Shown here: positions 7,601 to 39,853 of the stretch, in pieces
Layout: the number at the start of each line of letters is the position of its first letter
How positions within the stretch are numbered: the stretch's first letter is position 1
Assembly: GCA_003155175.1 (NCBI GenBank)
Contig: PMFP01000085.1
Span: forward strand, 21,403-62,279
From: Vulcanimicrobiota bacterium
GTDB taxonomy: Bacteria; Vulcanimicrobiota; Vulcanimicrobiia; Vulcanimicrobiales; Vulcanimicrobiaceae
Direction: 5' to 3'
DNA: 40,877 nucleotides
Translations under genes and position numbers: made by a program
The notes under the pieces: generated by a model
Seen by the model: only the letters and a program-made list of their open reading frames with translations
Told to the model about the DNA's origin: nothing
The model's database searches: none

Positions 7601-7612
7601 GCCGCGCGCGAC

Positions 7613-8623: not shown

Positions 8624-8632
8624 GCCGAGGTG

Positions 8633-21328: not shown

Positions 21329-21412
21329 CGCACGCGGTTTCGACGCCGTGGGGTGTCGCGCTTCTTGCCGAGGGCAGAGAATTGCGCCGTCCGCAGCGAA
21401 ATCTCCACGCCG
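21329..21412. promoter_or_regulatory. divergent intergenic region (GT2 operon leftward, lipoprotein gene rightward)
   Basis: Inferred from geometry only: this is an 84-bp gap between two divergently oriented start codons. I could not identify convincing -35/-10 boxes. Confidence 0.3.
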
Positions 21413-26475: not shown

Positions 26476-26551
26476 GCCGCATCTGCGCGTCGTTCCGCTC
26501 GAGGGGGCGCCGCGACCACGACTCTCACTGGCCTCTTCGACGTTATTCGTC

Positions 26552-28096
26552 ATGGCGGCGACGTTCGCGTCGGCTCTCCTGGGCTTCGCGCGCGAGGTCG
26601 TCAACGCGAAGTTTTACGGCACGCAATGGGAAATGGACACGTTTCTTGCGGCGGCGACGATCCCGACGATCTTGTTCGGGGTCTTTAACGGGGCGCTCGT
26701 GAGCGCGCTCGTTCCTACGTTCACCGACTACATCGCACGAGGGCGCGAAGACGACGCGTGGCTGCTCGGAAACACGATCGTCAACCTGCTTGCGCTCGTA
26801 TTGACGGTCTGCGCGGTCGCGGGGTTCGTCACTGCGGGTTGGTACGTGCCGCTTATCGCCCACGGATTCCCCGCGCCGCAGATGGGCGTCGCGGTCCGGA
26901 TGACGCGATGGCTCATGCCGACGATCGTGGCCGTCAGCCTGAGCGGAGTCTTTTCGGCGATGCTCAACGCGTACCATCGCTTTCGCGTGGCGTCCATGGT
27001 CGGCGTAGTCTTGAACGTCGTTACGATAACGACCGTCGTTCTGCTCAATCACAAGATCGGTATTTTCGCCCTCGTGCTCGGCACGACGTTGGGATTGATC
27101 GCCCAGATGGCGGTTCAGATTCCGTCGTTCTTGTCAATCGGCAAGTACCGCTTCGTCATGGACCTGCAGCATCCGGGCCTGCGAAAGATCTGGGAGCTTC
27201 TCGGCCCGATCATCGTCGCGTCGGCCGCCGGCCAGATCGCGCTGTTCTTCGATCGGTTTTTTGCGTCCACGCTGTCGCCCGGCTATATGGCCGGCATGAA
27301 CTATGCGACGAAGCTCGTCTACTTTCCGCAGCAAGTCTTCGGCGCGGCCATTGCGACCGTGATATTTCCGTTGCTGGCCGCCCACTACGCACGCGACAAT
27401 CGCCGCGGCGTAGCGGGCACCCTCGTCACCGGCTTGAGGTTGGTCAATTTCATTACGATTCCCGCGATGTGCGTGTTGATCGTATTGGCGCACCCGATGG
27501 TGGAGACGCTGTTCCAGCGCGGCAGTTTCCAAGCGAGCGCCACGGACTTGACCGCCGGTCTCATGCCCTATGCGGCGTTCGGGCTCGTCGCGCTCGCCGC
27601 CAATATCGTGTTGACCCGTTGCTGCTTCGCGTGTCACGAAACGGCGGCTCCCGTCGGCATCTCCGTGATCACGGTGCTGCTCAACGTCACGCTTTCGTTG
27701 GTATGGCTGCCGAGTTTGGGTGCGCGCGGCCTGCTGCTTGCGAATTCGGTAAGCCAGTCGTTACAGGCGCTTCTTTTGCTCGGCGTGGTTGCGAGGATCG
27801 TTTCGGGAATCAACTGGCGCGCTCTCTCGATTTCGACTCTGAAGATCGTCGTGGCCTCGACGGCGATGGTGCTTGCGCTCAACTGGATTAAGGCGCTGGG
27901 CGTGCATCCCGAACCGACGCTGGCCTCGCGAGCTTGGTTCCTCTTCGGGCAGATGACCATAGGAGGGCTGGTCTTCGTGGCCGTTGCGCGCGCGATTTCC
28001 GTTGACGAACTGACGCTGGCCTGGCAGACGATTATTGCCAAGTTCGAGCGCAACTTGATCGTGCCGCCCGAAAACCGCGATGCGCCGATCGCGTAA
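26552..28096 (+). CDS. murJ: MurJ/MviN-family (MOP superfamily) lipid-linked glycan flippase
   Basis: MAATFASALLGFAREVVNAKFYGTQWEMDTFLAAATIPTILFGVFNGALVSALVPTF is the canonical MurJ N-terminus, followed by about 14 TM segments. The first canonical start is the ATG at 26552. A slightly longer N-terminus from a non-canonical codon (CTG at 26528) cannot be excluded. Confidence 0.8.
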   Translation: MAATFASALLGFAREVVNAKFYGTQWEMDTFLAAATIPTILFGVFNGALVSALVPTFTDYIARGREDDAWLLGNTIVNLLALVLTVCAVAGFVTAGWYVPLIAHGFPAPQMGVAVRMTRWLMPTIVAVSLSGVFSAMLNAYHRFRVASMVGVVLNVVTITTVVLLNHKIGIFALVLGTTLGLIAQMAVQIPSFLSIGKYRFVMDLQHPGLRKIWELLGPIIVASAAGQIALFFDRFFASTLSPGYMAGMNYATKLVYFPQQVFGAAIATVIFPLLAAHYARDNRRGVAGTLVTGLRLVNFITIPAMCVLIVLAHPMVETLFQRGSFQASATDLTAGLMPYAAFGLVALAANIVLTRCCFACHETAAPVGISVITVLLNVTLSLVWLPSLGARGLLLANSVSQSLQALLLLGVVARIVSGINWRALSISTLKIVVASTAMVLALNWIKALGVHPEPTLASRAWFLFGQMTIGGLVFVAVARAISVDELTLAWQTIIAKFERNLIVPPENRDAPIA

Positions 28097-28101
28097 CGTT
28101 C

Positions 28102-30084
28102 GTGCCTAGCGGGCCACGGTTCTCGATCGTCATCCCGGCTCACAACGAGGAATCGCGCATAGGGCCGACTCTGCGTGCGTATCTCGACGGGTTCGAAGAC
28201 TCCGAGGTCATCGTCGTCCTCAACGGTTGCACCGACGCCACCCCCGCGCTCGTTCGCGCCGGTACGGCCGGTCGAAAGAATGCAAAGGTCGTTCAGCTCG
28301 ATGACGCCGTGGGGAAGGGCGGCGCGGTCCGCGTGGGTTTTTTGGTCGCCGATGCGCCGATCGTTGCCTACGTGGATGCCGACGGCGCAACGTCGCCCGA
28401 AGAGATGCGCCGGTTGTGCGAACTCCTAGGGCCTGGTGACGACGCCATTATCGGCTCGCGTTGGAAGAGCGGTGCGGACGTGCACGTAAGGCAGGGTCTT
28501 CCGCGCCGGGTTGCCAGCCGGTGCTTCAACGTGTTGGTGCGCGCGCTCTTCGGCCTCCCGTACTCCGACACGCAGTGCGGAGCCAAAGTGTTTCGACGGG
28601 ATAGCCTGTACGCCGCGATGATGACCGTCGAGACGGCGAACTTCGCCTTTGACGTGGATCTGCTCTTCGTTCTCGACAGGCGCGGCATGAACGTGCGGGA
28701 GGTGCCCACCGTCTGGAAGGACGTTGCCGGTTCGCACGTCCCGTTGGTGCCCGCCTCGCTCAAGATGCTCGCTTCGATCCTGCGCTTGCGCCTTCAGTAT
28801 TCGTTCTTCCGCACGATAGTCCCGATGTTCGATCGGCTGTTCCCCACAAATCCGATCGCGCTGCACGACGGTTTCCGGATCCTGGTCCTGAACTGGCGCG
28901 ATCCGAAGCACCCGCAAGCGGGGGGCGCGGAAGCGTACCTCTACGAGATCGCGAGACGATGGGTCGCGCAAGGCCACTCGGTCGAATGGTTGACGGCATC
29001 CTTTCCGGGAGCCGCCCGCACCGAGCTACTCGACGGGATCAAGATCACGCGCGTCGGCGACCGGTTCTCGGTGTACTTTCGCGTGCCTTTGGAATACTTG
29101 CGGTCCTGTCGCGATCGGTTCGACGTCATACTCGACGCGGAGAACGGCGTGCCGTTCTTCAGCCCGCTCTACTCGCTGAAACCGAAGCTGTGTTTGATCT
29201 TCCACGTGCACGTCGACGTTTTTCGAAAACATCTGCCGTGGCCCGTATCGGAAGTATTCGTTTGGCTCGAGACCTGGCTGGTTCCCCGCCTCTATCGGGG
29301 GGCTAAGTTCGTCGCGATATCGGAGGATACGAGACGCGCGATGCGCGAGGCGAGACTGACCGATCGGCCCGTTGGAATGGTATATAGCGGCGTCGACTCG
29401 GCTCTCGTTCCCGGTACGAAGGCCGAGATTCCGACGGTGCTCTATCTCGGGCGACTCATGCCGTATAAACGCGTCGACTTGCTGATCGCGGCGTTTGCGG
29501 AAGTGCGCGAGCGCGTCCCGGATGCCGTGCTCTGCATAGCGGGAAGCGGTCCGGCGGAAGCCGGCTTGAGAGAGCTCGTGCGCTCGCTTCGCCTCGACGA
29601 GGCGGTGACGTTTGAGGGTTTCGTCGACGAGCGGCGCAAGCGCGAGCTGCTGCAAAGTGCGTGGGCGTTTTGCAACCCGTCCGAGATGGAGGGTTGGGGA
29701 ATCTCGATCATCGAGGCAAACGCGTGTGCGACGCCGGCCGTCGCCTTCGCGGTCCCGGGCCTGCGGGAAGCGATCCTGGACGGGGAAAGCGGAATGCTCG
29801 TGCCGGAAGGAGGCGAACTCGCGAAGCCAATCGTTCGACTCCTGACCGACGCTCCGTGGCGTCTGCGTTTGGAGGAGGGAGCAAAAAAGCGCGCATCGGC
29901 TTTTTCCTGGGATCGCACCGCCGACGCGATGCTCGAACAGGTCGTGCAGGTCGTGACCGGCGATTGGTTCGGCTTGGAACGCACGACGAAGCGCTGGTCG
30001 TTGATGAAGAAGCGCTCGGTAAACGGGCAGAGCGAACGGGGTTCGCCCGTTACGGAAAGCATTCCGATCGACGTCATTTACTAG
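28102..30084 (+). CDS. bifunctional glycosyltransferase: N-terminal GT2 domain fused to a C-terminal GT4 (GT-B) domain
   Basis: 660 aa. The GT2 half shows FSIVIPAHNEE, NGCTDAT and VDADGAT (DxD). The GT4 half starts near FRILVLNWRDPKHPQAGGAEAY and contains EGWGISIIEANACATPAVAF (the E-x7-E region). Confidence 0.8.
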   Translation: MPSGPRFSIVIPAHNEESRIGPTLRAYLDGFEDSEVIVVLNGCTDATPALVRAGTAGRKNAKVVQLDDAVGKGGAVRVGFLVADAPIVAYVDADGATSPEEMRRLCELLGPGDDAIIGSRWKSGADVHVRQGLPRRVASRCFNVLVRALFGLPYSDTQCGAKVFRRDSLYAAMMTVETANFAFDVDLLFVLDRRGMNVREVPTVWKDVAGSHVPLVPASLKMLASILRLRLQYSFFRTIVPMFDRLFPTNPIALHDGFRILVLNWRDPKHPQAGGAEAYLYEIARRWVAQGHSVEWLTASFPGAARTELLDGIKITRVGDRFSVYFRVPLEYLRSCRDRFDVILDAENGVPFFSPLYSLKPKLCLIFHVHVDVFRKHLPWPVSEVFVWLETWLVPRLYRGAKFVAISEDTRRAMREARLTDRPVGMVYSGVDSALVPGTKAEIPTVLYLGRLMPYKRVDLLIAAFAEVRERVPDAVLCIAGSGPAEAGLRELVRSLRLDEAVTFEGFVDERRKRELLQSAWAFCNPSEMEGWGISIIEANACATPAVAFAVPGLREAILDGESGMLVPEGGELAKPIVRLLTDAPWRLRLEEGAKKRASAFSWDRTADAMLEQVVQVVTGDWFGLERTTKRWSLMKKRSVNGQSERGSPVTESIPIDVIY

Positions 30085-30150
30085 GAGGAACCCAAGCGGC
30101 GACGACGCATTGTTGTAGGCCACCGCCGCATTTGAAGGGTCCTCTTTGCC

Positions 30151-30426
30151 GTGTCCTCCGACGAAATCTATCAGCAGCTGTCCAGCATCATGCGCGACGT
30201 GTTCGACGACGATTCGCTCGTCGCAACGCCCGAGCTCACCGCGGGGCAGGTTGACGGCTGGGACAGCTTCTCGCACCTGCGCTTGATGCTTTCGATCGAG
30301 CGGTCGTTCGGCGTTGACTTCGCGGCTTCGGAGATATCGTCCTTAAAGAACGTCGGCGAGCTGGCTGCGCTCATTGGGTCGAAGCTCCCGGCAGAACGTG
30401 CGGGTTCACCTAGCGAAGAATCGTGA
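30151..30426 (+). CDS. acyl/peptidyl carrier protein (DltC-like stand-alone ACP)
   Basis: 91 aa with a GTG start. The phosphopantetheine attachment context is QVDGWDSFSHLRLMLSIE. The stop overlaps the MBOAT start (GTGA at 30423-30426). Confidence 0.8.
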   Translation: MSSDEIYQQLSSIMRDVFDDDSLVATPELTAGQVDGWDSFSHLRLMLSIERSFGVDFAASEISSLKNVGELAALIGSKLPAERAGSPSEES

Positions 30427-31859
30427 ACGTCCCGTCGCTCGCGTTTCTCGGCCTGGTCGCCGTCGTTGCCCTCCTTCTTGCGATTTCCAGAAGCCACGGT
30501 TGGCGCTCCGCGCTGCTGCTCGTCGCCAACGTCGGCTTCGTCTTAACGTTCTCTCACGATCTGCGTCAGCTCGCTCCGTTTGCCGCGCTCCTGGCCGGTG
30601 GCTTCGTCGCGATGCGATTGATGCACTCGCAAAAGAACCCCGCCGTTTTCGCGACGGCCATCGGCGCCCTGGTTCTTCTCTTTTGCTGGCTCAAGCGATA
30701 CACGTTCTTTCCTCCCGGGGCTCTGCTGCCGTTCGTCTACCTTACGGTCGGGATGTCGTACGTGTTCTTTCGCGTGCTGAGCCTGGTCGTCGACGCCTAC
30801 CAGGACAGCTTGCCCGAGCGCGTCGGCATCGTGCGTTTCCTCAACTATACGCTGAACTTCCCGGCTTTCGTCTCGGGCCCGATCCAGTTCTATCGCGACT
30901 ATAGGCGCGACGAATCCGAAAGCCCCGCGGCGCTCGATCTCTCCATTGCGGGGAAGTCGATCGAGCGCATCGTCATCGGCTTTTTCAAAGTCACGGTCGT
31001 CTCGCCGGTCTTGGCGAGCTTCCAGGACCGCGCCGTAGCGGCGGCGTCCGCGAACCTCTCGCCCGGTCTGCGCACGCTCGACGCGGCGCTCCTTCTGGCT
31101 CTGTTCCCGATTCTGCTCTACGCGAATTTTTCCGGGTATACCGACGTCGTCATCGGCGCCGCGCGATTCATGCGCTTCGAGCTTCCGGAAAACTTCGACC
31201 GTCCGTTCTCCTCGAAGAGCTATCTCGAGTTTTGGAGCCGGTGGCACATGTCGCTCTCGAATTGGTTCAAGACTTACGTCTATTCGCCGCTGCTGCTCAA
31301 CCTCATGAGGCGCTTCCCGTCGCGCAACGTCGAACCGTTTCTCGGCGTGATCGCGTTCTTCGCGACGTTCTTCCTGGTGGGACTTTGGCACGGCCAGACC
31401 GCGATGTTCGTGGTCCTCGGCTTGCTGATGGGTTTGGGCATCAGCGGGAACAAGCTCTATCAGATCGAGATGATTCGCCGCATGGGCCGGGCGCCGTACC
31501 GGGCCTTGTGCGCGAATCCGCTCTATGAGGCCGCATCGCGCGGACTCACGTTTCTGTGGCTTTCCTTTACGTTGGTCTTTTTCTGGGCGACGTGGCCGGA
31601 GCTTGAGGGCCTCGTCGCGCATCTGGGAGCGGTGCCGATCGCTTCCGCCATGCTGCTGACGTTCGCCGTTGGCGCGGTCGTGCTGACGGCGACGACGGCG
31701 CTGGTGGACCGCTATCGGGCCGTCTTCGAGGAGGGCTCGCTGGCGGGGCTCTCCGCGTTCGCGCGGCCGGCTTGGTATACCGCGATCGCCGTCGTCACCG
31801 CGTCCGTCGCGGTCATGCTCGACGCCCCCGCTCCGCACATCATCTACCGAGGTTTCTAA
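30423..31859 (+). CDS. MBOAT-family membrane O-acyltransferase (DltB/AlgI-like)
   Basis: 478 aa and polytopic. Shows FPAFVSGPIQFYRDY, NFSGYTDVVIG, the catalytic-His motif FWSRWHMSLSNWFKTYVY and GLWHG. Confidence 0.9.
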   Translation: MNVPSLAFLGLVAVVALLLAISRSHGWRSALLLVANVGFVLTFSHDLRQLAPFAALLAGGFVAMRLMHSQKNPAVFATAIGALVLLFCWLKRYTFFPPGALLPFVYLTVGMSYVFFRVLSLVVDAYQDSLPERVGIVRFLNYTLNFPAFVSGPIQFYRDYRRDESESPAALDLSIAGKSIERIVIGFFKVTVVSPVLASFQDRAVAAASANLSPGLRTLDAALLLALFPILLYANFSGYTDVVIGAARFMRFELPENFDRPFSSKSYLEFWSRWHMSLSNWFKTYVYSPLLLNLMRRFPSRNVEPFLGVIAFFATFFLVGLWHGQTAMFVVLGLLMGLGISGNKLYQIEMIRRMGRAPYRALCANPLYEAASRGLTFLWLSFTLVFFWATWPELEGLVAHLGAVPIASAMLLTFAVGAVVLTATTALVDRYRAVFEEGSLAGLSAFARPAWYTAIAVVTASVAVMLDAPAPHIIYRGF

Positions 31860-31860
31860 C

Positions 31861-32763
31861 ATGTCCGCCGATCTCAAACCGTTTACCGACGAAGTCGTCC
31901 TGCAGAACCCGTTGCACGAAAAATTTCTCACGTCGTCGCTTGAGGGAATGTCCGACGATCTGAAGCGCGAGCTCGGCGACTACCTCGAGTACTGCGGCGC
32001 CCGCGGCCTGAGCACCGAATATCTGGCCGACTGCTACAACACGATCGTAAACGACACGCGAACCGAGCAGATGTACTTTTGGAAGCACGGCAAGTACCGG
32101 TACGAACGGTTTAAAGACGTGGCCGACAAAGTATATCTCGACCGCAACTACATGAACAAATACATGTACGGACTGGCCTTGACGTCGTTCCTTTGGCCCA
32201 ATCATGCGGAGCTCGGCGAGTTTTTTGAGCGAACTTTCCGGCGCGGCCAAAAGGGCGCGTATCTAGAGATCGGGCCCGGTCACGGTTACTACCTCAAACG
32301 GGCTGCCGAGCTGGGTGCGTTCGAAACGCTAACCGGCATCGACCTGAGTCCCACCAGCGTGGACATGACCCGCGAGATCCTCGCGCACGCCGGTTTCACG
32401 GACGCGAACGGCGTGCACGTGATGGAACGCGATTTTCTCGAATTCAGCGGCGACGACGCGACGTATTCGTGCATCGTGATGGGCGAGGTTCTCGAACACG
32501 TTGAGGACCCGGGACTCTTTCTCCGGAAGATTGCCGAACTGAGCGACCCCGACGCGCACATCTTCATTACGACCTGCTGCAACGCGCCGGCAGTCGATCA
32601 CATTTTCCTCTTCCGCACGCCTGCCGAAGTCGAAGAACTGATACGAAGCAATGGATTGGAGATCGTCGATTCGGTCTACGTGCCGTATGCGGGTAAGACG
32701 CTAGAGCAATGCGAGCGCGACGCACTCTCCGTGAACGTCGCATACGTTCTTAGGAAGCGGTAG
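31861..32763 (+). CDS. class I SAM-dependent methyltransferase with a roughly 120-aa N-terminal extension
   Basis: 300 aa. Motif I is AYLEIGPGHGYY, post-I is LTGIDLSP and motif II is YSCIVMGEVLEHVEDP. The start lies 1 nt after the MBOAT stop. Confidence 0.8.
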   Translation: MSADLKPFTDEVVLQNPLHEKFLTSSLEGMSDDLKRELGDYLEYCGARGLSTEYLADCYNTIVNDTRTEQMYFWKHGKYRYERFKDVADKVYLDRNYMNKYMYGLALTSFLWPNHAELGEFFERTFRRGQKGAYLEIGPGHGYYLKRAAELGAFETLTGIDLSPTSVDMTREILAHAGFTDANGVHVMERDFLEFSGDDATYSCIVMGEVLEHVEDPGLFLRKIAELSDPDAHIFITTCCNAPAVDHIFLFRTPAEVEELIRSNGLEIVDSVYVPYAGKTLEQCERDALSVNVAYVLRKR

Positions 32764-33152
32764 TGCTGGGGCTCGCTTTCCACCACATCGGTATTGCCTG
32801 CGCGGATATCGAAAAGACCGCGCGCTACGTGCGCGAAGCCTACGTCGTCGAGTCGGACTCGGGTACGGTTCACGATCCGCTGCAAGACGTTTACGTACGC
32901 CTCTTCAACGAAGGTACGCCCGGGGCGATCGAACTGGTGTCGGGGCCGGCCGTCGAAAAACTCGTAAAATCGCACGTGACCTACTACCACGTTTGCTACG
33001 CGACGGACGACCTCGAAGCGTCGATCGCCGCGGCGAAGGCCGCGGGGGCGATGCTGGTCTCGTCTCCCAAGCCGGCCGTGCTGTTCGGCGGGCGTCGCGT
33101 CGCGTTCGTGTTCACGGAGCTCGGACTCGTCGAGTTCGTCGAAAAGGCCTAA
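32763..33152 (+). CDS. VOC (glyoxalase/bleomycin-resistance/dioxygenase) superfamily protein, methylmalonyl-CoA-epimerase-like
   Basis: 129 aa with a GTG start overlapping the previous stop. The segments LAFHHIGIACADIEKTARYV and YYHVCYATDDLEASIAAAKAAG form the paired beta-alpha-beta-beta-beta modules with metal-ligand His/Glu positions seen in MCE-type epimerases. Confidence 0.65.
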   Translation: MLGLAFHHIGIACADIEKTARYVREAYVVESDSGTVHDPLQDVYVRLFNEGTPGAIELVSGPAVEKLVKSHVTYYHVCYATDDLEASIAAAKAAGAMLVSSPKPAVLFGGRRVAFVFTELGLVEFVEKA

Positions 33153-33159
33153 CGCGATC

Positions 33160-34131
33160 GTGCCCGCCGACAAGGCCAAGCGCGGCCTCGCCGTATTCGC
33201 CGTTTCGATCGCCGTCGTCGTCGCGCTCGTGGCCCTCGAGAATCTCCTCATCGCGAGCTACTTCCCGCGGCTGGAGCGGCTGCCCGAAGACGTCTCGCCT
33301 GCCTATCTCAAGCGCGAGATCGCGCTCATCGCAGCGTCGCCGCCCGCCGTGATTTTTCTAGGCGATTCGGTGGTTTGGGGGTATCGCGTCGAGCCCGGTC
33401 AGACGGCGGTGTCGATCTTGACGCGCCGGGGTTGCAATTGCCGCAACCTTGCGCTGCGGGCCGGTAGCCCGCCGAACGACTACGCGATCGTGCGGCTTCT
33501 CCTGGCTGCCGGGGTTCGCCCCAAAGCCGTGGTTCTCGAGATCGATCAGAAATCGTTCAACGCATCCGACGCCGACTACGCTCGCCTCCTACCCGGCATC
33601 GCGGCGCTCGCCACGCCGCTCTTCGCCCCCGCCGATCGCAGGCTTCTCGCGCCGCCGGTAGAGTCCGACGGAATCGCGCGACGCTCCGATCGCGCGCTTT
33701 CGTCCCTTTGGCTGCTTTACGCAATGCGCGCCGACATCCGCGGAACGTACTTTCCGCCTCCCGAGGAGATTCCGGTAACGCATCCGACGGCGGACATGTA
33801 CATGGGAACGTACGACCTGACTCCGCTTACGGACGCGAACCTGGGCGTGCACTTTCTAACCCAGACCGTCGACCTGCTGCGCGACGCAGGCGTTCCCGTC
33901 ATCGCGTTCATGACGCCGACGAACCACACGCTGCTCCACGATTACATCGACAGCGACGCCTATCGAGCCAATGGCGAGTTTCTCAAAAATCTGCTCGAGA
34001 GACGGGGCGTGCGCGTCGTCGACCTCGACACGGCCTTTCCGTCCGATCTCTTCTTCGACAACGCGCATCTGCGGCCGGCCGGCCAAGAGCTGCTCGCCGC
34101 CAAACTCGAGCCTGCGTTGCCGGCTAAATGA
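33160..34131 (+). CDS. membrane-anchored SGNH/GDSL-fold hydrolase or acyltransferase (DltD/AlgJ-like topology)
   Basis: 323 aa. It has a single N-terminal TM (LAVFAVSIAVVVALVAL). Block I is VIFLGDSVVWG, a block III-like element is SPPND, and block V is FFDNAHLRPAG (DxxH). Confidence 0.65.
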   Translation: MPADKAKRGLAVFAVSIAVVVALVALENLLIASYFPRLERLPEDVSPAYLKREIALIAASPPAVIFLGDSVVWGYRVEPGQTAVSILTRRGCNCRNLALRAGSPPNDYAIVRLLLAAGVRPKAVVLEIDQKSFNASDADYARLLPGIAALATPLFAPADRRLLAPPVESDGIARRSDRALSSLWLLYAMRADIRGTYFPPPEEIPVTHPTADMYMGTYDLTPLTDANLGVHFLTQTVDLLRDAGVPVIAFMTPTNHTLLHDYIDSDAYRANGEFLKNLLERRGVRVVDLDTAFPSDLFFDNAHLRPAGQELLAAKLEPALPAK

Positions 34132-36046
34132 GGATTGCTTCGTCGAATCCCGAGCGGACTACGCTCATCGGTGCCGCGGGAACGTCCGCGCCGGTGGATA
34201 TCTCGTAGCGGCGCTCGCCGCTTTCGCTCTCGTCAACGAGACGAAATCCCAGTTTGTCGTAGTGTTCCCGCACCATGCCGTTCCGGTCGGTCGGACGATA
34301 TACGCCTATCACGCGCTCCACGCCGCGCCCGCGGGCGTGCTGCAGAATCTCGCGCAGCACCATCTGCTCGACGCGGCGGCCAAGAACGCGGCAACTCATC
34401 AGCCACGTATCGATTTCCCACTCCGCAGCGGAGATCTCGCGGCAGACGTTGACGCCGATCATGCCGTTGTCGCCGAACGTGTCGACGAGGCGAACTTGCA
34501 GCGTGAAGCAGGCGGGATCGGACGCGATGGCGGCGATCTCGGCTTCGTTGTACCGTCTCGTGGTGAGATTAAACTGATTCGACTTGTTGACGAGCTGCGC
34601 GATCCGCGCGCGTCCCGGTGCGTCGAAGGGCCGGAAATCGATCTGCATCTCGAGCGAGGCGAGGTAGCCTTCGAGATCCCCGACCCGCTCGCGGAGCTCG
34701 ACGCGGCGGGCGTTGGCTTGATAGGCGTCGCCACGGGCGGCGTCCTCGGTCGAGAATGCGATACCCTCGAAGTACCCGGCCGCCGAGAGCGTACGCGCGT
34801 AGTATGCGGGGTCGGGCGGAAGTTCCGGCACAGCGACTTCCGGCAGCGATTTGCGGATCAGCCCGCGCTCGACCGGATTGTCGTCGAGAAAGACCATGGC
34901 GTCCGTGCCGAGCGAGAGGGCGGAGGCAATCGCGGCGATGTTGGTCGCCTTGTCGTCCCAATTTGCTTGGAAAACCGCGATGTGATCTTCTTGAAGCAGC
35001 ATCTCGGTATGGCCGCGGAAGGGCAAGCGCGCCGTTGCGTCGTCGTTTTTGGAGGACACCGCCAGCACGACGCCGCGATCGCGCAACGCCAGCGCCGTCC
35101 GCTGTACCTCGAGATAGGCCTCGCCGGTTGCGTTGCCCTGCCCGAGGACGATGCCCTCGATGCCGTCGTCGCCGATGATGCCGCCCCACACCGTATTGTC
35201 GAGATCGAGGATCAGGCATCGCCGGCTCTTGCCGCGGAGCGCGCCGACGAGCCTCGCGCAGTGCTCGGCGTAGAGCGGAAGATACTTGCTGTCGAACGCG
35301 AGTTTTCCGAGATTCCATTGCTTGGGCGAATGCCAATCGCCCAGTCCCACGGTTTCGGCCAAACCGGCGACGTCGAAGAGGACGTCTTGACTGCCGCGAA
35401 CGCTTTGGACCAACGCGGCGTTGAATGCGTCCACGAGCGCACGCGGCGTTCCGGGTACGCAGCGGTCGTAACCTCCGAACAACGTCTCCGGCGGCGGCGG
35501 CAGCGTTTGTACGATGCTGAGCGCCTTCCCGTGCGCGCCGAAACCGTCCCGAAGGCTTCCAAGGAATCCGAGCGCCGCGTCCACGCTGCGGAGCGAAACG
35601 CCCTCGTCTCGCGGATCGGCGCGGAACGGAAGTCCGCGATAATCGAGCGCGAGGAGCACGGCATCCGGCTGCCAACGATTGATGCTCGAATCGGGGTCGA
35701 ACGCTTCTTGCGCGGTCTGTCCGAAATCCGCCGCCATACACTCGAGCGCGATGCCGTGACGCGCCGCGCTCCCGACGAGCAGCGGTACGAGATAGTCGAG
35801 CGTCCCATTTCCCACGACGGCGAGCTTGAACGGCGACAAGGGCTCGAGCGTCCGCCCCGCCGCGGACGCCTCGCGGATCGCACGCGCCAGTTGCCGCAAT
35901 TGGTTTTCGTCCAGCGCGTAACCGGCGAGTCGCGCGAGCGCGTTACCCGCCGCGTCGTTCGAACGGACCACGTTGCGGCATCGCTCGCGAAAATCGGCGG
36001 GAGGCTTGGGTAGCCAAGTGAGATGAGCGTAGAGATCTGCTGCCAC
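34124..36046 (-). CDS. FkbH-like HAD-IIIC phosphatase/acyl-transferase (three-domain form)
   Basis: About 640 aa from the GTG at 36046; the track ORF start at 36151 would overlap the upstream gene. HAD motif I is CLILDLDNTVWGGIIGDDG and a later HAD motif is MVFLDDNP. The C-terminal FkbH/GNAT-like domain contains NKSNQFNLTTRRY and the conserved-Cys motif WLMSCRVLGRRVE. Confidence 0.85.
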   Translation of the reverse strand: MAADLYAHLTWLPKPPADFRERCRNVVRSNDAAGNALARLAGYALDENQLRQLARAIREASAAGRTLEPLSPFKLAVVGNGTLDYLVPLLVGSAARHGIALECMAADFGQTAQEAFDPDSSINRWQPDAVLLALDYRGLPFRADPRDEGVSLRSVDAALGFLGSLRDGFGAHGKALSIVQTLPPPPETLFGGYDRCVPGTPRALVDAFNAALVQSVRGSQDVLFDVAGLAETVGLGDWHSPKQWNLGKLAFDSKYLPLYAEHCARLVGALRGKSRRCLILDLDNTVWGGIIGDDGIEGIVLGQGNATGEAYLEVQRTALALRDRGVVLAVSSKNDDATARLPFRGHTEMLLQEDHIAVFQANWDDKATNIAAIASALSLGTDAMVFLDDNPVERGLIRKSLPEVAVPELPPDPAYYARTLSAAGYFEGIAFSTEDAARGDAYQANARRVELRERVGDLEGYLASLEMQIDFRPFDAPGRARIAQLVNKSNQFNLTTRRYNEAEIAAIASDPACFTLQVRLVDTFGDNGMIGVNVCREISAAEWEIDTWLMSCRVLGRRVEQMVLREILQHARGRGVERVIGVYRPTDRNGMVREHYDKLGFRLVDESESGERRYEISTGADVPAAPMSVVRSGFDEAILI

Positions 36047-36057
36047 GTGAAATCCGC

Positions 36058-36735
36058 TTAAGGAGAAGGGGTCGCCGCTCGCGCCGCGTTCAAGACGTCG
36101 ACGAAATCCTGCCCGACGATCTGATTTCCGGACGTGCTCGGATGCGCCCAATTGCGCATGAGCGTGCTCGGGAACGGTCCGTCGTTGAATCTACGGTCGG
36201 CGGCAAGGTCCACGAGCAACAATTTGTTCTGTGACGCAAAGCCGCGAAGCCACTGGTTGTACGCATCGAGATCGGCGCGAACGCGCTCTTGTTGCGCGTT
36301 GTTGATGTAGGTGGCGATCACGATCGTGGCGTGCGGACACCGTTGCCGCACCGCCTGATAGACTTGCGCGAACTGCGATTGAACCGTCGAGATCGGCACT
36401 GCCTGCCGAATCAGATCGCCGCCGCCCGTTTCGAGCGTAACCAATTTGCAGGCCGGATTACCGGATGGAATCTTCGGAACTTCTACGTTGAGCGCGTAAG
36501 CCGCGCTCGAACCGCCCAGGGCCAGGTTCTCGAGCGTGAGGCCCGGGAACGCCTTAACGACGACCTGCGCGAACTGCTCGTCGTTGTAGCGGTCGTTCGA
36601 TATCGAGTCGCCGATCGCGTAGTAGGTCCCGTTGGTCAGGTCTACTTTAGAGCCTTGCGCTTGCGCGATCGCGACGCCGCTACTTAGTAGCGGCGCGCAC
36701 AGCGCGATGCCCATGACGTATGCGACGTATTTCAT
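36058..36735 (-). CDS. secreted SGNH/GDSL esterase
   Basis: 225 aa. The signal peptide is MKYVAYVMGIALCAPLLSSGVAIAQA. Block I is YAIGDSISN, block II is LALGGSSA, block III is ETGGGDL and the block V-like element is NWAHPSTSGN. Confidence 0.75.
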   Translation of the reverse strand: MKYVAYVMGIALCAPLLSSGVAIAQAQGSKVDLTNGTYYAIGDSISNDRYNDEQFAQVVVKAFPGLTLENLALGGSSAAYALNVEVPKIPSGNPACKLVTLETGGGDLIRQAVPISTVQSQFAQVYQAVRQRCPHATIVIATYINNAQQERVRADLDAYNQWLRGFASQNKLLLVDLAADRRFNDGPFPSTLMRNWAHPSTSGNQIVGQDFVDVLNAARAATPSP

Positions 36736-36835: not shown

Positions 36836-38638
36836 GTGCGCTCCCTCATCCTTCTTTTTTTCTGCGTTCTCGGACTCTCGGCTCCGGCGCTACCCGCGAC
36901 CTTCTCTACCATCGCCGGCAGCGGCGCCGCCGGCGTCTCGGACGGCCCGGCGAACGGCGCCACCTTCCTCATGCCCTACGGGGTCGCGGTCTTCCACGGA
37001 ACGATCTACGTGACGGATTTTCTCGGCCAACGCGTGCGAGCGATCGATCCGAACGGAACCGTGCGCACGGTTGCAGGCGGGGGAGCGCTTGGTCCCGACG
37101 GATTGAGCGTTCGCGGCGGCTACCGTGACGGCGCCGCGCTGGACGCACGATTCGACGGTCCGGCGGGGATAGCGATCGACGCGTCCGGCCGAATTTTCGT
37201 CGCGGATTCACGCAACGACTGCATTCGCGTGATTGAGGGCGGGCGCGTTCGCACGTACGCCGGCGCGCCGTCGCGCTCGTACTCCGACGGTCCGCTCTCG
37301 AGTGCCGGCTTCGACGAGCCGGTCGCGCTCGCGATCGACCAAGACGGCACGATGTACGTCGGCGACTTTAATGCGGGCGTCCGGAAAATCACGAAGGACG
37401 GCGCGGTCGGCACGATCGCGCTCCCGCCTGGATTCGATACGACCGTCACGTCCATCGTTCCCAAGCCTTGGGGGCTGCTGATCGCAAACGGACGCTCGAT
37501 GATCTGGCTTCGTCATCCCGGCGCGACGCCGCCCGACTACGACGCTACGATTCCCGAAGCTCCGTTTCCGTTCGAGCTTTCGAACAATCACAGACTCTTC
37601 GCTCAGGACGACGTGGCGACCGGCTATCCGTTCCAGGTGACGAACCTGACGGGCGAGGTTTATGCGTACACGGACCCGCGGCGCATGGCAGTGCGCCTGT
37701 TCGACAACTATTTCGCGTTTGCCGATTCGCTGAGCGAGAGTCCGGCCGAAAACTACTCTGCCTTCGGCGGCGGCTATCAAGACGGACCGATCGGCAAGGT
37801 TCAAGTTCCGCTGGGGATCGCTTCGCTCGGGGCATCCGCCGTCGTCTTTGCCGATGCCGGCAATCGCCGGATTCGTAAAATCTCGAACATCGAAACGCGT
37901 CAGTACGCGTCGCCGTCAACCCCGTTCGGCGACTATAGCGACGGTCAAAAGAACTATCGCATTCTGATCATTTCCGGTTGCTACGGTGCGTGGGGAGTCC
38001 CGTTTTCGGCGAGTCTTGCCGGGCGGCTCGAGGAGCGGCTCGAGGCGGATCGTTCGCGGCTCGGCATCCCCCGCCGGGTCCGGGTGGCGACGATATGGAT
38101 CGGAACCGTCGGCGAAGTGCGGGATTATGCGCGGGACGTCCTCTCGAGCGGCGTGGCCGACCTGGTGGTTTGGGAGTTCAACGACGGCATGCCCAACGAA
38201 GAGTGGGTACCCGAGCGCGACAACCTCACGACGCCGCTCAAGGATATCGATTTCTGGCGGAACTCAATGCAACCCAAACTCGTTTCCATTGGGAAGTCGT
38301 TACGGGAAGCGGGCGTTCCGTTTTACGTCCTCGCCGTGCCCACGCCGCTGTATTTTCCCGCCTCCGAGTTGACATATCGGGATCTCACCCATCCGCCGTT
38401 GGAGCAGACTAGGGACTGGCCGCAGATGTCGTCAATCTATCAGACGATCTTTACTGGGAACGCCGATGGTTTCGTCGACGCGGGGACGGCCATGTTCGCC
38501 CAGGAGAAGCTGCCGGATCACCGGTTGATGTTCCTAACGACGGGCGCATACCAATTGTCCGCTGCGGGTCAAGCCGTCGTGACGGACGCTCTTTTCGACA
38601 CTCTCGCTCACGATCGGCCGTGGGCGCCGAAGCACTAG
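36836..38638 (+). CDS. secreted NHL-repeat beta-propeller protein with a C-terminal alpha/beta (degenerate SGNH-like?) domain
   Basis: 600 aa with a GTG start. The signal peptide is MRSLILLFFCVLGLSAPALPA. Repeated NHL blades include PYGVAVFHGTIYVTDFLGQRVRAIDPNG, PAGIAIDASGRIFVADSRNDCIRVI, PVALAIDQDGTMYVGDFNAGVRKI and VVFADAGNRRIRKI. The C-terminal roughly 230 aa start at YRILIISGCYGAWG. Confidence 0.75.
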   Translation: MRSLILLFFCVLGLSAPALPATFSTIAGSGAAGVSDGPANGATFLMPYGVAVFHGTIYVTDFLGQRVRAIDPNGTVRTVAGGGALGPDGLSVRGGYRDGAALDARFDGPAGIAIDASGRIFVADSRNDCIRVIEGGRVRTYAGAPSRSYSDGPLSSAGFDEPVALAIDQDGTMYVGDFNAGVRKITKDGAVGTIALPPGFDTTVTSIVPKPWGLLIANGRSMIWLRHPGATPPDYDATIPEAPFPFELSNNHRLFAQDDVATGYPFQVTNLTGEVYAYTDPRRMAVRLFDNYFAFADSLSESPAENYSAFGGGYQDGPIGKVQVPLGIASLGASAVVFADAGNRRIRKISNIETRQYASPSTPFGDYSDGQKNYRILIISGCYGAWGVPFSASLAGRLEERLEADRSRLGIPRRVRVATIWIGTVGEVRDYARDVLSSGVADLVVWEFNDGMPNEEWVPERDNLTTPLKDIDFWRNSMQPKLVSIGKSLREAGVPFYVLAVPTPLYFPASELTYRDLTHPPLEQTRDWPQMSSIYQTIFTGNADGFVDAGTAMFAQEKLPDHRLMFLTTGAYQLSAAGQAVVTDALFDTLAHDRPWAPKH

Positions 38639-38658: not shown

Positions 38659-39126
38659 TTGAGGTATTTTATTCGCGCGCTCACGTCCGCAACGTTCGCG
38701 TTCGCGCTGACCGGCGGCGCAGCGCTCGCTTCGGTTTCGGGCACGGTCGTTACCGCCAAGTCCGGCGAGCACGCGTTGATCTTGTGGGACGCGACGCCGG
38801 CAGTCGTCACCATCGTCGACAACAAGCAGCCCCGCGACGCGGCGATGGAATCGCTCGAATCGCAAGCCATGCAGATCGCCGGCGAGCGCGCCCCCGCGCT
38901 AACGGACGCAAAGACGATCACCGTTCGCGTCGTCTACCAGAAGATCGGCGCCGTGAATCCCGCCTACGGTACTCCGACGTTTGCCGGGGTCGAGCGCGTC
39001 TTCGACCTTACGGTCGACGCGCCGACCGCCAAAACGCAAAGCGGGGCGCTTGCAAAATCGCTCGCATCCGGAACCACGCCGAAGGGCGTTACCGTCCAGG
39101 TGACGGGCGTGCTACCGCCCCTGTAA
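38659..39126 (+). CDS. small secreted protein of unknown function
   Basis: Preferred start is the TTG at 38659, 8 nt after GGAGA. The signal-like N-terminus is LRYFIRALTSATFAFALTGGAALA. I recognise no family. The call rests on signal-peptide logic, ORF length and the lack of a better ORF on the other strand here. Confidence 0.4.
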   Translation: MRYFIRALTSATFAFALTGGAALASVSGTVVTAKSGEHALILWDATPAVVTIVDNKQPRDAAMESLESQAMQIAGERAPALTDAKTITVRVVYQKIGAVNPAYGTPTFAGVERVFDLTVDAPTAKTQSGALAKSLASGTTPKGVTVQVTGVLPPL

Positions 39127-39687
39127 TCCTTTGTTCGGCGAAAGCAACTCGTAGGAGCGGCCGCAGCCGCACGCAAGCGATTCGGGAAGACGCTCGCCGC
39201 ACGCGCAGATCCAGCCGATTTGCCGGGCGGGATTCCCAACGACGAGGGCGTGCGCCGGCACGTCGCGGATCACGACGGAACCGGCGCCCACGAAGCAGCG
39301 TTCGCCCAGGGTAACTCCGCAGACGATGGTCGCTTGAGCTCCGATGGACGCTCCGCGCTTCACCAGCGTCTTGCGGAACTGCAGCGGATCCGAGAAGCCG
39401 ACGCGCGGCGTGAAGTCGTTGGTGAAAACCATTGCCGGCCCCAGGAACACCTCGTCCTCGACCGTCACTTTGTCCCAAATCAGAACTTGATTTTTCACCG
39501 TAACGCGGTTTCCCAGTACCGCTCCGGATTCCACAAAGGCGTGGTCGCAGATGTTGCAATTTTCGCCGATGCGCGCGCCGGACATGACGTGTGCGAAGGC
39601 CCAGACGCGTGTCCCGGCTCCGACGGAATCGCTCTCGCAGAGCCCCTTCTCGTGCACGAAGACCGGTTGCTTGCTTTCGGAAATCAT
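39112..39687 (-). CDS. left-handed beta-helix (hexapeptide-repeat) sugar N-acetyltransferase, WbpD/WlbB-like
   Basis: 191 aa. The sequence FVHEKGLCESDSVGAGTRVWAFAHVMSGARIGENCNICDHAFVESGAVLGNRVTVKNQVLIWDKVTVEDEVFLGPAMVFTND shows hexapeptide periodicity and the layout of nucleotide-amino-sugar N-acetyltransferases. The C-terminal tail carries CxC...CxC. Confidence 0.8.
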   Translation of the reverse strand: MISESKQPVFVHEKGLCESDSVGAGTRVWAFAHVMSGARIGENCNICDHAFVESGAVLGNRVTVKNQVLIWDKVTVEDEVFLGPAMVFTNDFTPRVGFSDPLQFRKTLVKRGASIGAQATIVCGVTLGERCFVGAGSVVIRDVPAHALVVGNPARQIGWICACGERLPESLACGCGRSYELLSPNKGLQGR

Positions 39688-39853
39688 TCGCGCATATTTG
39701 GCTGCGACGGGAGCTGAAGCCTCGCCTAACAGGGGCCTGCGCTACCTTAACGAAGGTCGGGTGAGAAAATCCATTGTTGTTGCGTTCGTCTATCGAAGAG
39801 CCGGCCATCGAAAACCTTTGCAGCGTGTCCCTTAGTCGGTCCACGGCGCCGCG

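Follow-up and report, generated by a model that had tools for sequence, protein, structure and literature searches.

A candidate carrier-protein-dependent MBOAT–SGNH acylation module with an FkbH-like loader in a Vulcanimicrobiota bacterium

How is the carrier protein of a Dlt-like acylation module charged if no adenylating enzyme is encoded with it? The question is raised by a locus of a Vulcanimicrobiota bacterium on contig PMFP01000085.1. The analysed stretch of 40,877 nucleotides is called the window, and all positions refer to it. A preliminary description had proposed a rewired Dlt pathway in which an FkbH-type enzyme loads a glyceryl-derived group for transfer by MBOAT and SGNH proteins to an extracytoplasmic glycan. 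Our analysis favours, as the probable reading, a carrier-protein-dependent MBOAT–SGNH acylation of an extracytoplasmic polymer. The acyl group would be of glycolytic origin and not an adenylated acid or an acyl-CoA.

The plus strand encodes a stand-alone ACP of 91 amino acids (30151–30426), a DltB-like MBOAT of 478 amino acids (30423–31859), a class I SAM-dependent methyltransferase of 300 amino acids (31861–32763), a VOC or glyoxalase-fold protein of 129 amino acids (32763–33152) and a membrane-anchored, DltD-like SGNH-fold protein of 323 amino acids (33160–34131). The ACP and MBOAT genes overlap by 4 nt and have the GTGA in common, which indicates the translational coupling described earlier. 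A gap of 1 nt separates the MBOAT and methyltransferase genes, the methyltransferase and VOC genes overlap by 1 nt, and a gap of 7 nt precedes the SGNH gene. Gaps of at most 8 nt had been reported and were found; of the two reported single-base overlaps, only one exists within the ACP-to-SGNH string. The long-form FkbH-like gene (34124–36046, minus strand) is convergent with the SGNH gene and overlaps it by 8 nt. Its most likely start is the GTG at 36046, giving 640 amino acids, because homologues have 630–645 amino acids. A start at 36151, overlapping the GDSL gene, was replaced for this reason, so that an 11-nt gap and no overlap separates the two genes. The upstream gene in the same orientation encodes a secreted GDSL/SGNH esterase of 225 amino acids with a signal peptide (36058–36735, minus strand; Lipase_GDSL_2, 64 bits), as the preliminary description had stated. 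An exported NHL-repeat protein of 600 amino acids with a C-terminal SGNH-like domain follows at 36836–38638 (plus strand; NHL and TEN_NHL matches). Pfam and NCBIfam profile searches and the motif positions recovered all seven genes of the preliminary description together with their motifs.

The ACP scored 21.3 bits with the PP-binding model (cutoff 20.8) and matched generic ACP models of NCBIfam. The serine for phosphopantetheine attachment is located in GWDSFSHL (residues 36–43, nt 30256–30279). A small carrier protein with this serine is thus encoded beside an MBOAT, as in Dlt systems. The sequence itself is not DltC-like: the top PDB match was the putative ACP 2lml (1.5e-18), whereas DltC entries reached E-values of 0.2–0.5 only, and the protein is not a DltC orthologue. 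Of 85 loci, 77 have an ACP homologue next to the FkbH-like gene. The absence of an AMP-ligase or adenylation protein, noticed before among the translated genes, withstood further searches. Pfam scans of the window ORFs revealed no AMP-binding protein, and tblastn of the window with four AMP-binding proteins as queries gave no match. A PROSITE-type AMP-binding signature occurred once in the window, by chance, inside the Mfd gene; among the 85 related loci, the signature was present in only four. The DltA-type adenylating D-alanine–carrier ligase of the Dlt system was not found in the window.

The FkbH-like protein is the candidate for the loading function. It scored 292.2 bits with TIGR01686, twice the cutoff of 146.65, and 57 bits with the HAD-IIIC model TIGR01681 (cutoff 35.75). 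It consists of an N-terminal FkbH_N domain, a HAD-IIIC phosphatase domain and a GNAT-fold acyl-transfer domain. The motifs DLDNT (nt 35192–35206), DDNP (nt 34874–34885) and SCRVLGR (nt 34376–34396) are present, and DLDNT, SSKN, K, DDNP and LMSCRV do not vary among 12 to 40 homologues. The features characteristic of the FkbH family, four HAD motifs and the conserved cysteine of the acyl-transfer domain, are all intact, and the earlier naming as an FkbH-like HAD-IIIC protein was upheld. In an alignment, DxDxT, SKN, DD and LMSCRV were common to a short-form FkbH of 359 amino acids from an NRPS/PKS cluster of B. thuringiensis, at 26% identity. The structure of BF1531 from B. fragilis (PDB 3slr) matches the N-terminal and HAD domains (5e-58). 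For the C-terminal domain, the AF2 model (pLDDT 87) predicts a GNAT fold, which would suit pantetheine-linked acyl transfer. The cysteine of LMSCRV is presumably the acyl-enzyme nucleophile. The route of FkbH and OzmB, an enzyme of 366 amino acids, leads from 1,3-bisphosphoglycerate (1,3-BPG) via an acyl-S-enzyme to glyceryl-ACP (PMC9057759). Characterised FkbH enzymes lack the N-terminal domain of about 270 amino acids that is present in the long form, and the substrate specificity of the long form could therefore differ.

The MBOAT was identified by Pfam (MBOAT, 9e-18) and scored 175.4 bits with the DltB model TIGR04091, below the equivalog cutoff of 375; it does not qualify as a DltB equivalog. 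The histidine motifs are WHMSLSNW (residues 274–281, nt 31242–31265) and LWHG (residues 321–324, nt 31383–31394). Both align with the closest solved structures, the DltB entries 6bug and 8jem (1e-30). To our knowledge, DltB is the only MBOAT that accepts a carrier protein. The C-terminus ends in IIYRGF (31839–31856, plus strand), a hexapeptide of the FxYxxF class with a putative acyl-shuttle tyrosine. Among 63 complete FkbH-linked MBOATs, 58 end in [FILV]xYxxF and 26 in the exact FxYxxF. A six-frame scan of the whole window found such an ending in a single stop-delimited segment, the MBOAT, and no separate DltX microprotein ending in FxYxxF. The acyl-shuttle role of the FxYxxF tyrosine has been described for DltX and PatA (PMC12148441). 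The function of DltX may thus be fused to the MBOAT as its C-terminal tail, and the system would be a mechanistic hybrid of Dlt and PatAB/AlgI-type pathways. The Dlt-like parts of the proposed rewired architecture stand; a simple rewiring of Dlt does not, in view of this fusion.

The SGNH protein has one N-terminal TM helix, a GDS motif at residues 68–70 (nt 33361–33369) and a DNAH motif at residues 300–303 (nt 34057–34068). Pfam matches are sub-threshold only (Lipase_GDSL_2, 26 bits; DUF1574, 24 bits). G68, D69, S70, N96, D300 and H303 show no variation among 40 homologues. Homologues carry the Pfam family PF27429 (LB_356), some also PF13472 or PF07611. The block I GDS, block III asparagine, block V DxxH and flavodoxin-like fold of the SGNH superfamily are all represented. 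An hhalign comparison with the AlgX/GDSL-type partner of 380 amino acids from other phyla gave 97%. The AF2 model (pLDDT 93.3) has the DltD structures 3bma, 6pfx, 6o93 and 7dxm as top PDB matches (E about 1e-5), at a modest TM-score of about 0.45–0.5. The SGNH identity, as read from the hhalign comparison with AlgX/GDSL-positive partners and from the predicted model, is confirmed. The single-TM-anchored SGNH protein of the preliminary description is thus of the DltD type known from Dlt systems. The secreted GDSL esterase is possibly a de-acylase. A search of the 85 related loci at 1e-5 gave no homologue; the esterase does not belong to the conserved module.

The genes between MBOAT and SGNH are, as we infer, accessory tailoring genes. 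The methyltransferase belongs to Methyltransf_23 (5e-17) and not to the FkbG type. Its homologues occur beside FkbH/ACP in 17 loci, with orthologues in L086 and L087. The VOC protein (Glyoxalase_4, 8e-15) scored 34.5 bits with the methylmalonyl-CoA epimerase model TIGR03081, far below the cutoff; 15 loci have a homologue beside FkbH/ACP, as does S. meliloti. The accessory genes differ from locus to locus and include methyltransferase, VOC, SDR and MaoC-SDR genes. Methyltransferase, VOC and SDR genes as recurring optional neighbours fit the tailoring of a small hydroxy-acid thioester. Pfam and NCBIfam scans found no FkbK/FkbI-type dehydrogenase, FkbG O-methyltransferase, ketosynthase, PKS or NRPS in the window, and no GNAT, FabH or LbH acyltransferase inside the operon.

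Conservation of the gene set was examined in 54 loci of other species, selected on FkbH similarity alone, each with flanks of 5 kb or more on both sides. In 52 of them an ACP gene adjoins FkbH, in 46 an MBOAT gene, and in 45 both. This association of FkbH with ACP and MBOAT is far above chance. The loci belong to Acidobacteriota, Alpha-, Beta- and Gammaproteobacteria, Gemmatimonadota, Cyanobacteria, Myxococcota and Nitrospinota; carriers of the module include Bradyrhizobium, Sphingomonas, Novosphingobium and Sinorhizobium meliloti. On the pSymB replicon of S. meliloti, the module adjoins rkp capsule-export genes. In 40 of 85 loci, FkbH and MBOAT flank an SGNH/AlgX-type gene that is homologous to the SGNH gene of the window. 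The strand of FkbH is shared by 75 of 76 MBOAT ORFs and 72 of 79 ACP ORFs. ACP, FkbH-like, MBOAT and SGNH genes co-occur across at least six phyla, the outcome of the gene-neighbourhood check that the preliminary description had suggested. Eight of the 54 full-flank loci have no MBOAT nearby, which indicates that long-form FkbH/ACP pairs supply other acceptor enzymes as well.

The genomic setting varies. Housekeeping genes surround the module in the closest relatives (L001, L086 and L087), and the linkage to the PGT/MurJ/GT genes adjacent in the window is not kept. More distant loci are often located within polysaccharide clusters with Wzy, Wza-like, PGT or rkp capsule-export genes. The closest relatives therefore weaken the proposal that the acceptor is a glycan produced by the neighbouring PGT/MurJ/GT genes; the polysaccharide clusters of distant loci agree with a glycan in general. 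The NHL-repeat protein accompanies the module in Eremiobacterota-type loci as a conserved neighbour (adjacent in L001–L005, L078, L086 and L087) and is clade-restricted (about 7 of 87 loci). No Ser/Asp/His triad is left in the C-terminal SGNH-like domain of the window copy: homologues have G-x-S and D-x-H where the window copy has SGCYG and GAYQ.

A pathway can be proposed from these parts. The long-form FkbH-like enzyme would bind 1,3-BPG and form an acyl-S-Cys intermediate in its GNAT-fold domain. The HAD domain would remove the 3-phosphate, and the neighbouring ACP would receive the glyceryl group on its phosphopantetheine arm. The unit carried by the ACP would in this lineage probably be O-methylated by the methyltransferase and, in analogy to methylmalonyl-CoA epimerase, the VOC protein would probably epimerise the thioester at C2. 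On the cytoplasmic side, the ACP may then dock onto the DltB-like MBOAT, which would shift the acyl group to the tyrosine of its own IIYRGF tail at the outer face. The DltD-like SGNH protein would take over the acyl group on Ser70 and esterify a hydroxyl group of an envelope glycan. The substrate 1,3-BPG, the acyl group, the order of transfers, the roles of methyltransferase and VOC protein and the acceptor are inferred; the glyceryl-derived nature of the acyl group is suggested by homology only. Overall, the observations of the preliminary description were confirmed and its interpretation is supported, with no refutation by the computational results.

The identity of the acyl group invites an alternative with unchanged architecture. 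The enzyme may use another phosphorylated or acyl-phosphate substrate, or retain the phosphate, and the methyltransferase, VOC and SDR proteins may tailor a different small acid. The N-terminal domain without counterpart in the characterised enzymes, such as OzmB with its 366 amino acids, the mere 26% identity to short-form FkbH from an NRPS/PKS context and the locus-to-locus variation of the accessory genes speak for it. The short form has nevertheless the four HAD phosphatase motifs and the LMSCRV cysteine in common with the long form, the TIGR01686 score is twice the cutoff, and every characterised family member known to us uses 1,3-BPG. A non-glycerate group is thus rather unlikely. It is more doubtful still that two functions are linked by chance, with FkbH, ACP, methyltransferase and VOC protein building an acyl unit that is attached to a nucleotide sugar in the cytoplasm by N- or O-acylation, as is suspected for the flagellin glycan of C. 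jejuni, and MBOAT and SGNH forming an acetyl-CoA-dependent O-acetyltransferase for the same polymer. The fused C-terminal tyrosine motif is typical of acyl-CoA-using enzymes of the PatA/AlgI type, FkbH/ACP pairs occur without MBOAT in the eight loci, and no MBOAT is reported for a C. jejuni locus with an FkbH-domain gene. This separation is contradicted by the GTGA coupling of ACP and MBOAT, by the co-orientation of both with FkbH and by carrier-protein-dependent DltB as the nearest solved relative of the MBOAT. The operon also has no GNAT, FabH or LbH acyltransferase, and the modules of L001, L086 and L087 stand alone among housekeeping genes without a candidate for a cytoplasmic acyltransferase.

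The acceptor may also be something other than a polysaccharide. Candidates are a lipid, a lipoglycan anchor and a secreted protein such as the NHL-repeat protein conserved alongside the module. Housekeeping genes form the flanks in the closest relatives, where this NHL-repeat/SGNH-like protein is the only constant neighbour. It is confined to one clade, however, distant loci lie within Wzy, Wza, PGT and capsule-export clusters, and the characterised bacterial MBOAT–SGNH pairs all target glycopolymers (PMC12148441). Such an acceptor is improbable. The polysaccharide esterification by a glycolytic acyl group, relayed from ACP to MBOAT and SGNH, is preferred.

Within the literature searched, no paper ties FkbH to an MBOAT/SGNH glycan pathway, in agreement with the earlier remark that no characterised system of this composition was known to its author. 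According to a mechanistic study of 2025, MBOAT/SGNH pathways other than Dlt operate without a carrier protein (PMC12148441). It is quite possible, and proposed tentatively, that the module represents a third general route of envelope-polymer acylation, beside acyl-CoA-fed MBOAT/AT3 systems and Dlt, which taps 1,3-BPG without ATP-dependent activation. If true, glyceroyl, O-methylglyceroyl or epimerised glyceroyl esters would be present on capsules, exopolysaccharides or O-antigens of hundreds of species, and the route could explain glycerate esters that are so far unassigned, such as the one of gellan.

The Dlt system (DltA, DltC, DltB, DltX and DltD) for the D-alanylation of teichoic acids is similar in the relay from a carrier thioester via a DltB-like MBOAT to a membrane-anchored DltD-like SGNH protein outside the cell. 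Four genes in one operon are a further likeness. In contrast to Dlt, the loader is an FkbH-type HAD/GNAT protein instead of the ATP-dependent adenylating DltA, and a hydroxy acid probably takes the place of D-alanine as the acyl group. DltX is absent and the MBOAT carries the tyrosine motif of that protein at its own C-terminus, the ACP sequence does not resemble DltC, the MBOAT scores below the DltB equivalog cutoff, and the hosts are mostly diderm bacteria without teichoic acids. PatA/PatB, AlgI/AlgJ/AlgF/AlgX and WssH-type systems share the C-terminal FxYxxF of the MBOAT, the SGNH/AlgX-like periplasmic transferase as partner and envelope or secreted glycans as targets. They use acetyl-CoA without a carrier protein (PMC12148441), whereas the operon described here includes, as conserved genes, an ACP and its dedicated loader. 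Judged from these two genes, the module departs from the carrier-free, acyl-CoA-dependent type.

The glyceryl-ACP synthases FkbH, OzmB, ZmaN and Tmn16 of polyketide and tetronate pathways combine HAD-IIIC with an acyl-transfer domain with the conserved cysteine, have a dedicated ACP adjacent and provide a precedent for O-methylation of a glycerate-derived unit. They differ from the long form, which has the extra FkbH_N domain of about 270 amino acids as in B. fragilis BF1531 (PDB 3slr). Their pathways include FkbK/FkbI-type dehydrogenases, ketosynthase, PKS or NRPS, all missing here, and deliver the unit to an assembly line, whereas the acyl-ACP of the module would serve a membrane O-acyltransferase.

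By annotation, the flagellin locus cj1299–cj1303 of C. jejuni (acpP2, a methyltransferase, an 'epimerase', an FkbH-domain gene and fabH2) is a similar cassette of ACP, FkbH-domain, methyltransferase and epimerase-like genes. The FkbH-domain gene cj1302 adjoins cj1301, annotated as an epimerase, and the pseudaminic acid of the flagellin carries di-O-methylglyceric acid (PMC3958885, PMC7099621). The cj1299–cj1303 genes may be responsible for this modification. The MBOAT/SGNH pair is not reported there, and the acyl group, unlike here, is on a nucleotide-sugar-derived nonulosonic acid and presumably added in the cytoplasm. Gellan from Sphingomonas elodea is a bacterial exopolysaccharide with an ester-linked L-glycerate at O-2 (PMC9104527), a parallel in chemistry only. 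FkbH–ACP–MBOAT modules are present in several Sphingomonas and Novosphingobium genomes; as a point of difference, the Sphingomonas loci examined also hold a methyltransferase. Glyceric-acid acyl groups do occur on bacterial glycans, and this supports a glyceryl group as the cargo of the module.

The 40.9 kb window has a G+C content of ~63%. The best matches of its proteins are in metagenome-assembled genomes of Candidatus Eremiobacterota (Baltobacteraceae, Rubrimentiphilum). A clean gene map was obtained from third-position G+C together with Pfam scans, and all motifs quoted in a preliminary description of the DNA were found. A co-directional string of genes occupies the plus strand from 24710 to 34131. 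It starts with a phosphopentomutase-like Metalloenzyme gene (from 24710), followed by a small PGT (Bac_transf), a MurJ/MOP flippase and a GT2-GT4 fusion. After a gap of 66 nt, it continues with an ACP (30151–30426), an MBOAT (30423–31859), a methyltransferase (31861–32763), a VOC protein (32763–33152) and a TM-anchored SGNH protein (33160–34131). An FkbH-like gene on the minus strand converges on the ACP-to-SGNH part, with a secreted GDSL esterase (36058–36735, minus strand) located upstream of it. Homologues have 630–645 aa; hence, a GTG at 36046 is the most likely start of the FkbH-like gene, yielding a product of 640 aa and no overlap with the GDSL gene. An exported NHL-repeat protein is encoded at 36836–38638 on the plus strand.

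Other envelope-related genes were seen in the window. Beyond the NHL gene, an LbH hexapeptide-repeat acyltransferase (39112–39687, minus strand) and a large multi-pass membrane protein without Pfam match (39836–40876, plus strand), possibly a glycan polymerase or an ArnT-like enzyme, likewise hint at glycan modification in the vicinity of the module. Two exported proteins without Pfam match are encoded on the minus strand at 22849–24612 (587 aa) and 22034–22852. The N-terminal segment of the 587-aa protein reads like an LptA/OstA-type domain. The protein may be an outer-membrane beta-barrel, which would be relevant to the type of envelope that Eremiobacterota have. A Wzy_C protein (18876–20231) and a GT2 (20315–21655) are located close upstream of the exported pair.

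The assignment of the HAD-IIIC protein to the FkbH family was corroborated. The FkbH-domain model TIGR01686 gave 292 bits (cutoff 147) and the HAD-IIIC model 57 bits. BF1531 of Bacteroides fragilis (PDB 3slr) matches the first ~430 residues (5e-58), and this BF1531-like region supplies the Pfam FkbH_N domain. Two alignments, one of 12 and one of 40 homologues, show the HAD motifs (DLDNT, SSKN, a Lys and DDNP; four in all) to be invariant, as well as NKSNQFNLTT and LMSCRVxGR with its cysteine. The C-terminal 205 residues have a GNAT fold in the AF2 model (pLDDT 87), which would be a sensible scaffold for binding the pantetheine arm. As a family test, the protein was aligned with a 359-aa short-form homologue from a Bacillus thuringiensis plasmid. 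The DxDxT, SKN, DD and LMSCRV positions are all kept. The short form sits within a hybrid NRPS/PKS cluster, a context that we ourselves judge to be zwittermicin-like. OzmB (366 aa) converts 1,3-bisphosphoglycerate (1,3-BPG) via phosphoglyceryl-S-enzyme and dephosphorylation to glyceryl-ACP (PMC9057759). Given the model scores and the motifs kept with the short form, the window protein is, judged by its sequence, a genuine member of the FkbH-domain enzymes, in a long form that carries an extra N-terminal region of ~270 aa. This region alone is matched by 1,027 representatives of 50%-identity clusters, 121 of them at E ≤ 1e-30. Full-length members carrying it mostly have 620–645 aa.

To our knowledge, the FkbH enzymes described so far all belong to polyketide, tetronate or NRPS chemistry. 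The absence of KS, PKS and dehydrogenase genes excludes a polyketide or tetronate pathway. A methoxymalonyl-ACP, tetronate, PKS or NRPS cluster was ruled out since KS, PKS, NRPS and FkbK/FkbI-type genes are lacking from the window and from most related loci. The preliminary description had recognised no adenylating loader, and a hidden one was rejected: Pfam, signature and tblastn searches of the window for an AMP-binding enzyme were negative, and an AMP-binding signature is present in just 4 of 85 related loci.

A whiA-gap-pgk housekeeping block with an iPGM gene is located on the minus strand at 4108–9511. The gap, pgk and iPGM enzymes make 1,3-BPG and 3-PG. As dedicated suppliers of 1,3-BPG, these housekeeping genes (4108–8623) were rejected: they lie 22 kb off and are not conserved with the module. 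Due to this distance and the lack of linkage to the module in other genomes, the gap-pgk proximity is treated as coincidental. The Metalloenzyme-family gene at 24710 was likewise rejected as a supplier, being phosphopentomutase-like and not conserved with the module.

The best solved relatives of the MBOAT are DltB structures (1e-30). Both His motifs align, and the score is far under the DltB equivalog cutoff. The protein ends in PAPHIIYRGF. Work of the Walker and Clarke groups established an FxYxxF acyl-shuttle motif in DltX and at the C-terminus of PatA-type MBOATs, with a tyrosine that accepts the acyl group ahead of the SGNH partner; according to their paper, MBOAT/SGNH pathways besides Dlt operate without a carrier protein (PMC12148441). 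The ending [FILV]xYxxF was seen in 58 of the 63 full-length MBOATs that are linked to an FkbH-like gene. Among the stop-delimited segments of the window, only the MBOAT ends in the motif; thus, the window has no separate DltX-like microprotein.

The SGNH protein on its own had only sub-threshold Pfam matches. Its homologues bear PF27429 (LB_356), in some cases together with GDSL_2 or DUF1574, and G68, D69, S70, N96, D300 and H303 are invariant. The top PDB matches of its AF2 model (pLDDT 93.3) are DltD structures. It is homologous to an AlgX/GDSL-positive protein of ~380 aa (hhalign 97%, E 3e-11) that other phyla encode between the FkbH and MBOAT genes. Together, the Pfam domains of the homologues, the invariant residues, the DltD match and the hhalign result establish the SGNH identity. 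The ACP is a generic, stand-alone carrier protein with a sequence that is not DltC-like. Its best solved relative is PDB 2lml, an uncharacterised structural-genomics 'putative acyl carrier protein' (1.5e-18), a far better match than any AcpP or DltC. This ACP subfamily may thus already have a solved structure.

The NHL-repeat protein has an SGNH-like domain at its C-terminus. Homologues beside the module in seven related loci (L001, L003–L005, L078, L086 and L087) keep G-x-S … D-x-H. These intact proteins have an AlgX-like layout, in which an SGNH domain is joined by a binding domain. The window copy has Cys/Tyr in the nucleophile position (SGCYG, nt 37973–37987), and Asp/His are absent (TTGAYQ). 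From its residues, it looks like a catalytically degenerate paralogue.

Three look-ups began from MBOAT homologues, in an Eremiobacterota genome, a Dongiaceae MAG and an Acidobacteriaceae MAG. All three revealed one co-directional operon in the order ACP, FkbH-like, MBOAT and SGNH, adjoined by an NHL-repeat protein. Scanning the FkbH alignment against one genome per GTDB species gave at least 600 candidates, and a long-form relative was confirmed in at least 589 species genomes. The best 80 of these loci include Acidobacteriota (among them cultured Tunturiibacter), Acetobacteraceae, Bradyrhizobium, Sphingomonas, Novosphingobium, Caulobacterales, Burkholderiales, Steroidobacteraceae, Vulcanimicrobiota, Gemmatimonadota, Anaerolineales, Cyanobium, Polyangiaceae, Nitrospinaceae and Magnetococcales. 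When the ORFs located up to 6 kb from the FkbH gene in 85 loci were clustered without supervision, the ACP family was placed in 77 loci, the MBOAT family in 67, the 380-aa SGNH type in 40 and an SDR in 11. Searches of these loci with the window proteins (phmmer) detected homologues of the methyltransferase in 17 and of the VOC protein in 15, somewhere in the locus. Among 54 loci chosen only via FkbH, with at least 5 kb on either side, the ACP occurs in 52, an MBOAT in 46 and the pair in 45. The proposed gene set is conserved as a neighbourhood in relatives. The SDR (~230 aa) is located between the ACP and the FkbH-like gene (L043, L049, L014 and eight more loci). Two Dongiaceae loci (L002/L003, 887–2329) have a divergent MaoC-dehydratase/SDR fusion upstream. 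These genes suggest other tailoring of the ACP-bound unit, by oxidation or dehydration, in other lineages.

The window layout ACP-MBOAT-MT-VOC-SGNH with a convergent FkbH recurs in the close relatives L086 and L087, with MBOAT identities of 74% and 61%. In L086, the closest relative found, the FkbH-like gene is a 61-residue C-terminal remnant after the SGNH gene (6839–7021, minus strand). A recent rearrangement, a deletion or an artefact of the assembly would explain this.

A copy of the module is located on pSymB of Sinorhizobium meliloti Rm41, ml47 and 1021 (L088, L089 and L092; gene annotation taken from ml47). It comprises a VOC protein, an MBOAT ending in FLYQGF, a 409-aa TM protein, an ACP and an FkbH-like gene, and directly adjoins the capsule-export genes rkpZ, rkpT, rkpS, rkpR and kpsF. 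The TM protein, labelled 'TonB-dependent receptor' in the database, was undetected by the HMMs of both SGNH partner types. Its GGS … DPGH motifs and its position suggest an SGNH equivalent. The FkbH-like gene of strain 1021 is broken over two reading frames and is probably frameshifted or a pseudogene.

The analysis demonstrates the parts, their catalytic residues and their linkage, and the parts very probably constitute a carrier-protein-dependent MBOAT-SGNH acylation system with an FkbH-type loader. We infer the substrate, the order of transfers, the roles of the methyltransferase and VOC protein, and the acceptor. The FkbH-like enzyme would take 1,3-BPG to form an acyl-S-Cys and, after dephosphorylation, glyceryl-S-ACP. 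Optional tailoring may include O-methylation and C2 epimerisation. The acyl group would pass to the His/Tyr475 tail of the MBOAT, to Ser70 of the SGNH protein and finally to a hydroxyl of an envelope glycan. This full chain, including a glycerate-derived acyl group, is somewhat favoured. The same architecture working with another acyl group is rather unlikely. That FkbH/ACP and MBOAT/SGNH are neighbours with independent functions is improbable.

An acceptor besides a glycan is equally improbable. The product of the PGT/MurJ/GT genes, as originally proposed, is a plausible acceptor in the window (same strand, 66-nt gap), but the arrangement is not conserved. Promoter and terminator counts, taken to see whether these genes and the ACP operon form one transcript, equal the shuffled expectation and point neither way. 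The module is located among housekeeping genes in L001 (the Eremiobacterota look-up), L086 and L087, and often within glycan clusters in distant loci; therefore, only an envelope glycan is kept as the likely acceptor class. Glycerate on glycans has precedents. Gellan bears an L-glycerate ester (PMC9104527); a literature search for the genes behind it found none. N-glyceroyl nonulosonic acids and related sugars exist on bacterial glycans. Pseudaminic acid of the Campylobacter jejuni flagellin occurs as a di-O-methylglyceric-acid derivative, and the FkbH-domain gene cj1302 lies beside cj1301, annotated as an epimerase (PMC3958885, PMC7099621). Both genes are presumably tied to the methylglyceric-acid modification.

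MBOAT-SGNH pairs are the chief route of bacteria for polymer acylation outside the membrane. Such acylation alters recognition by phages, the immune system and antimicrobials, and the material properties of industrial gums. The module is of interest for its wide distribution, for an acyl source that would be glycolytic and, unusually, ATP-independent, and because the proposal is directly testable, as the module occurs in the tractable Sinorhizobium meliloti, Bradyrhizobium (sp. ORS 111), Sphingomonas and Tunturiibacter (T. empetritectus M8UP27). If the proposal is true, hydroxy-acid esters of polysaccharides would become accessible to genetics, carrier-protein/MBOAT interfaces would gain a new family, and the structural-genomics orphan BF1531 would receive a function. 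Database labels of the parts are generic ('HAD-IIIC family phosphatase', 'MBOAT family protein', 'hypothetical'), and the literature search found no paper tying FkbH to an MBOAT/SGNH pathway or to LPS or capsule acylation. In the view of the field, Dlt is the sole carrier-protein-dependent MBOAT system and the others use acyl-CoA (PMC12148441). The module would break this dichotomy: a carrier protein would work together with a fused tyrosine shuttle of the PatA type, and an FkbH enzyme would replace ATP-dependent adenylation. Compared with Dlt and PatAB, its overall logic is the same, and every part comes from a known family.
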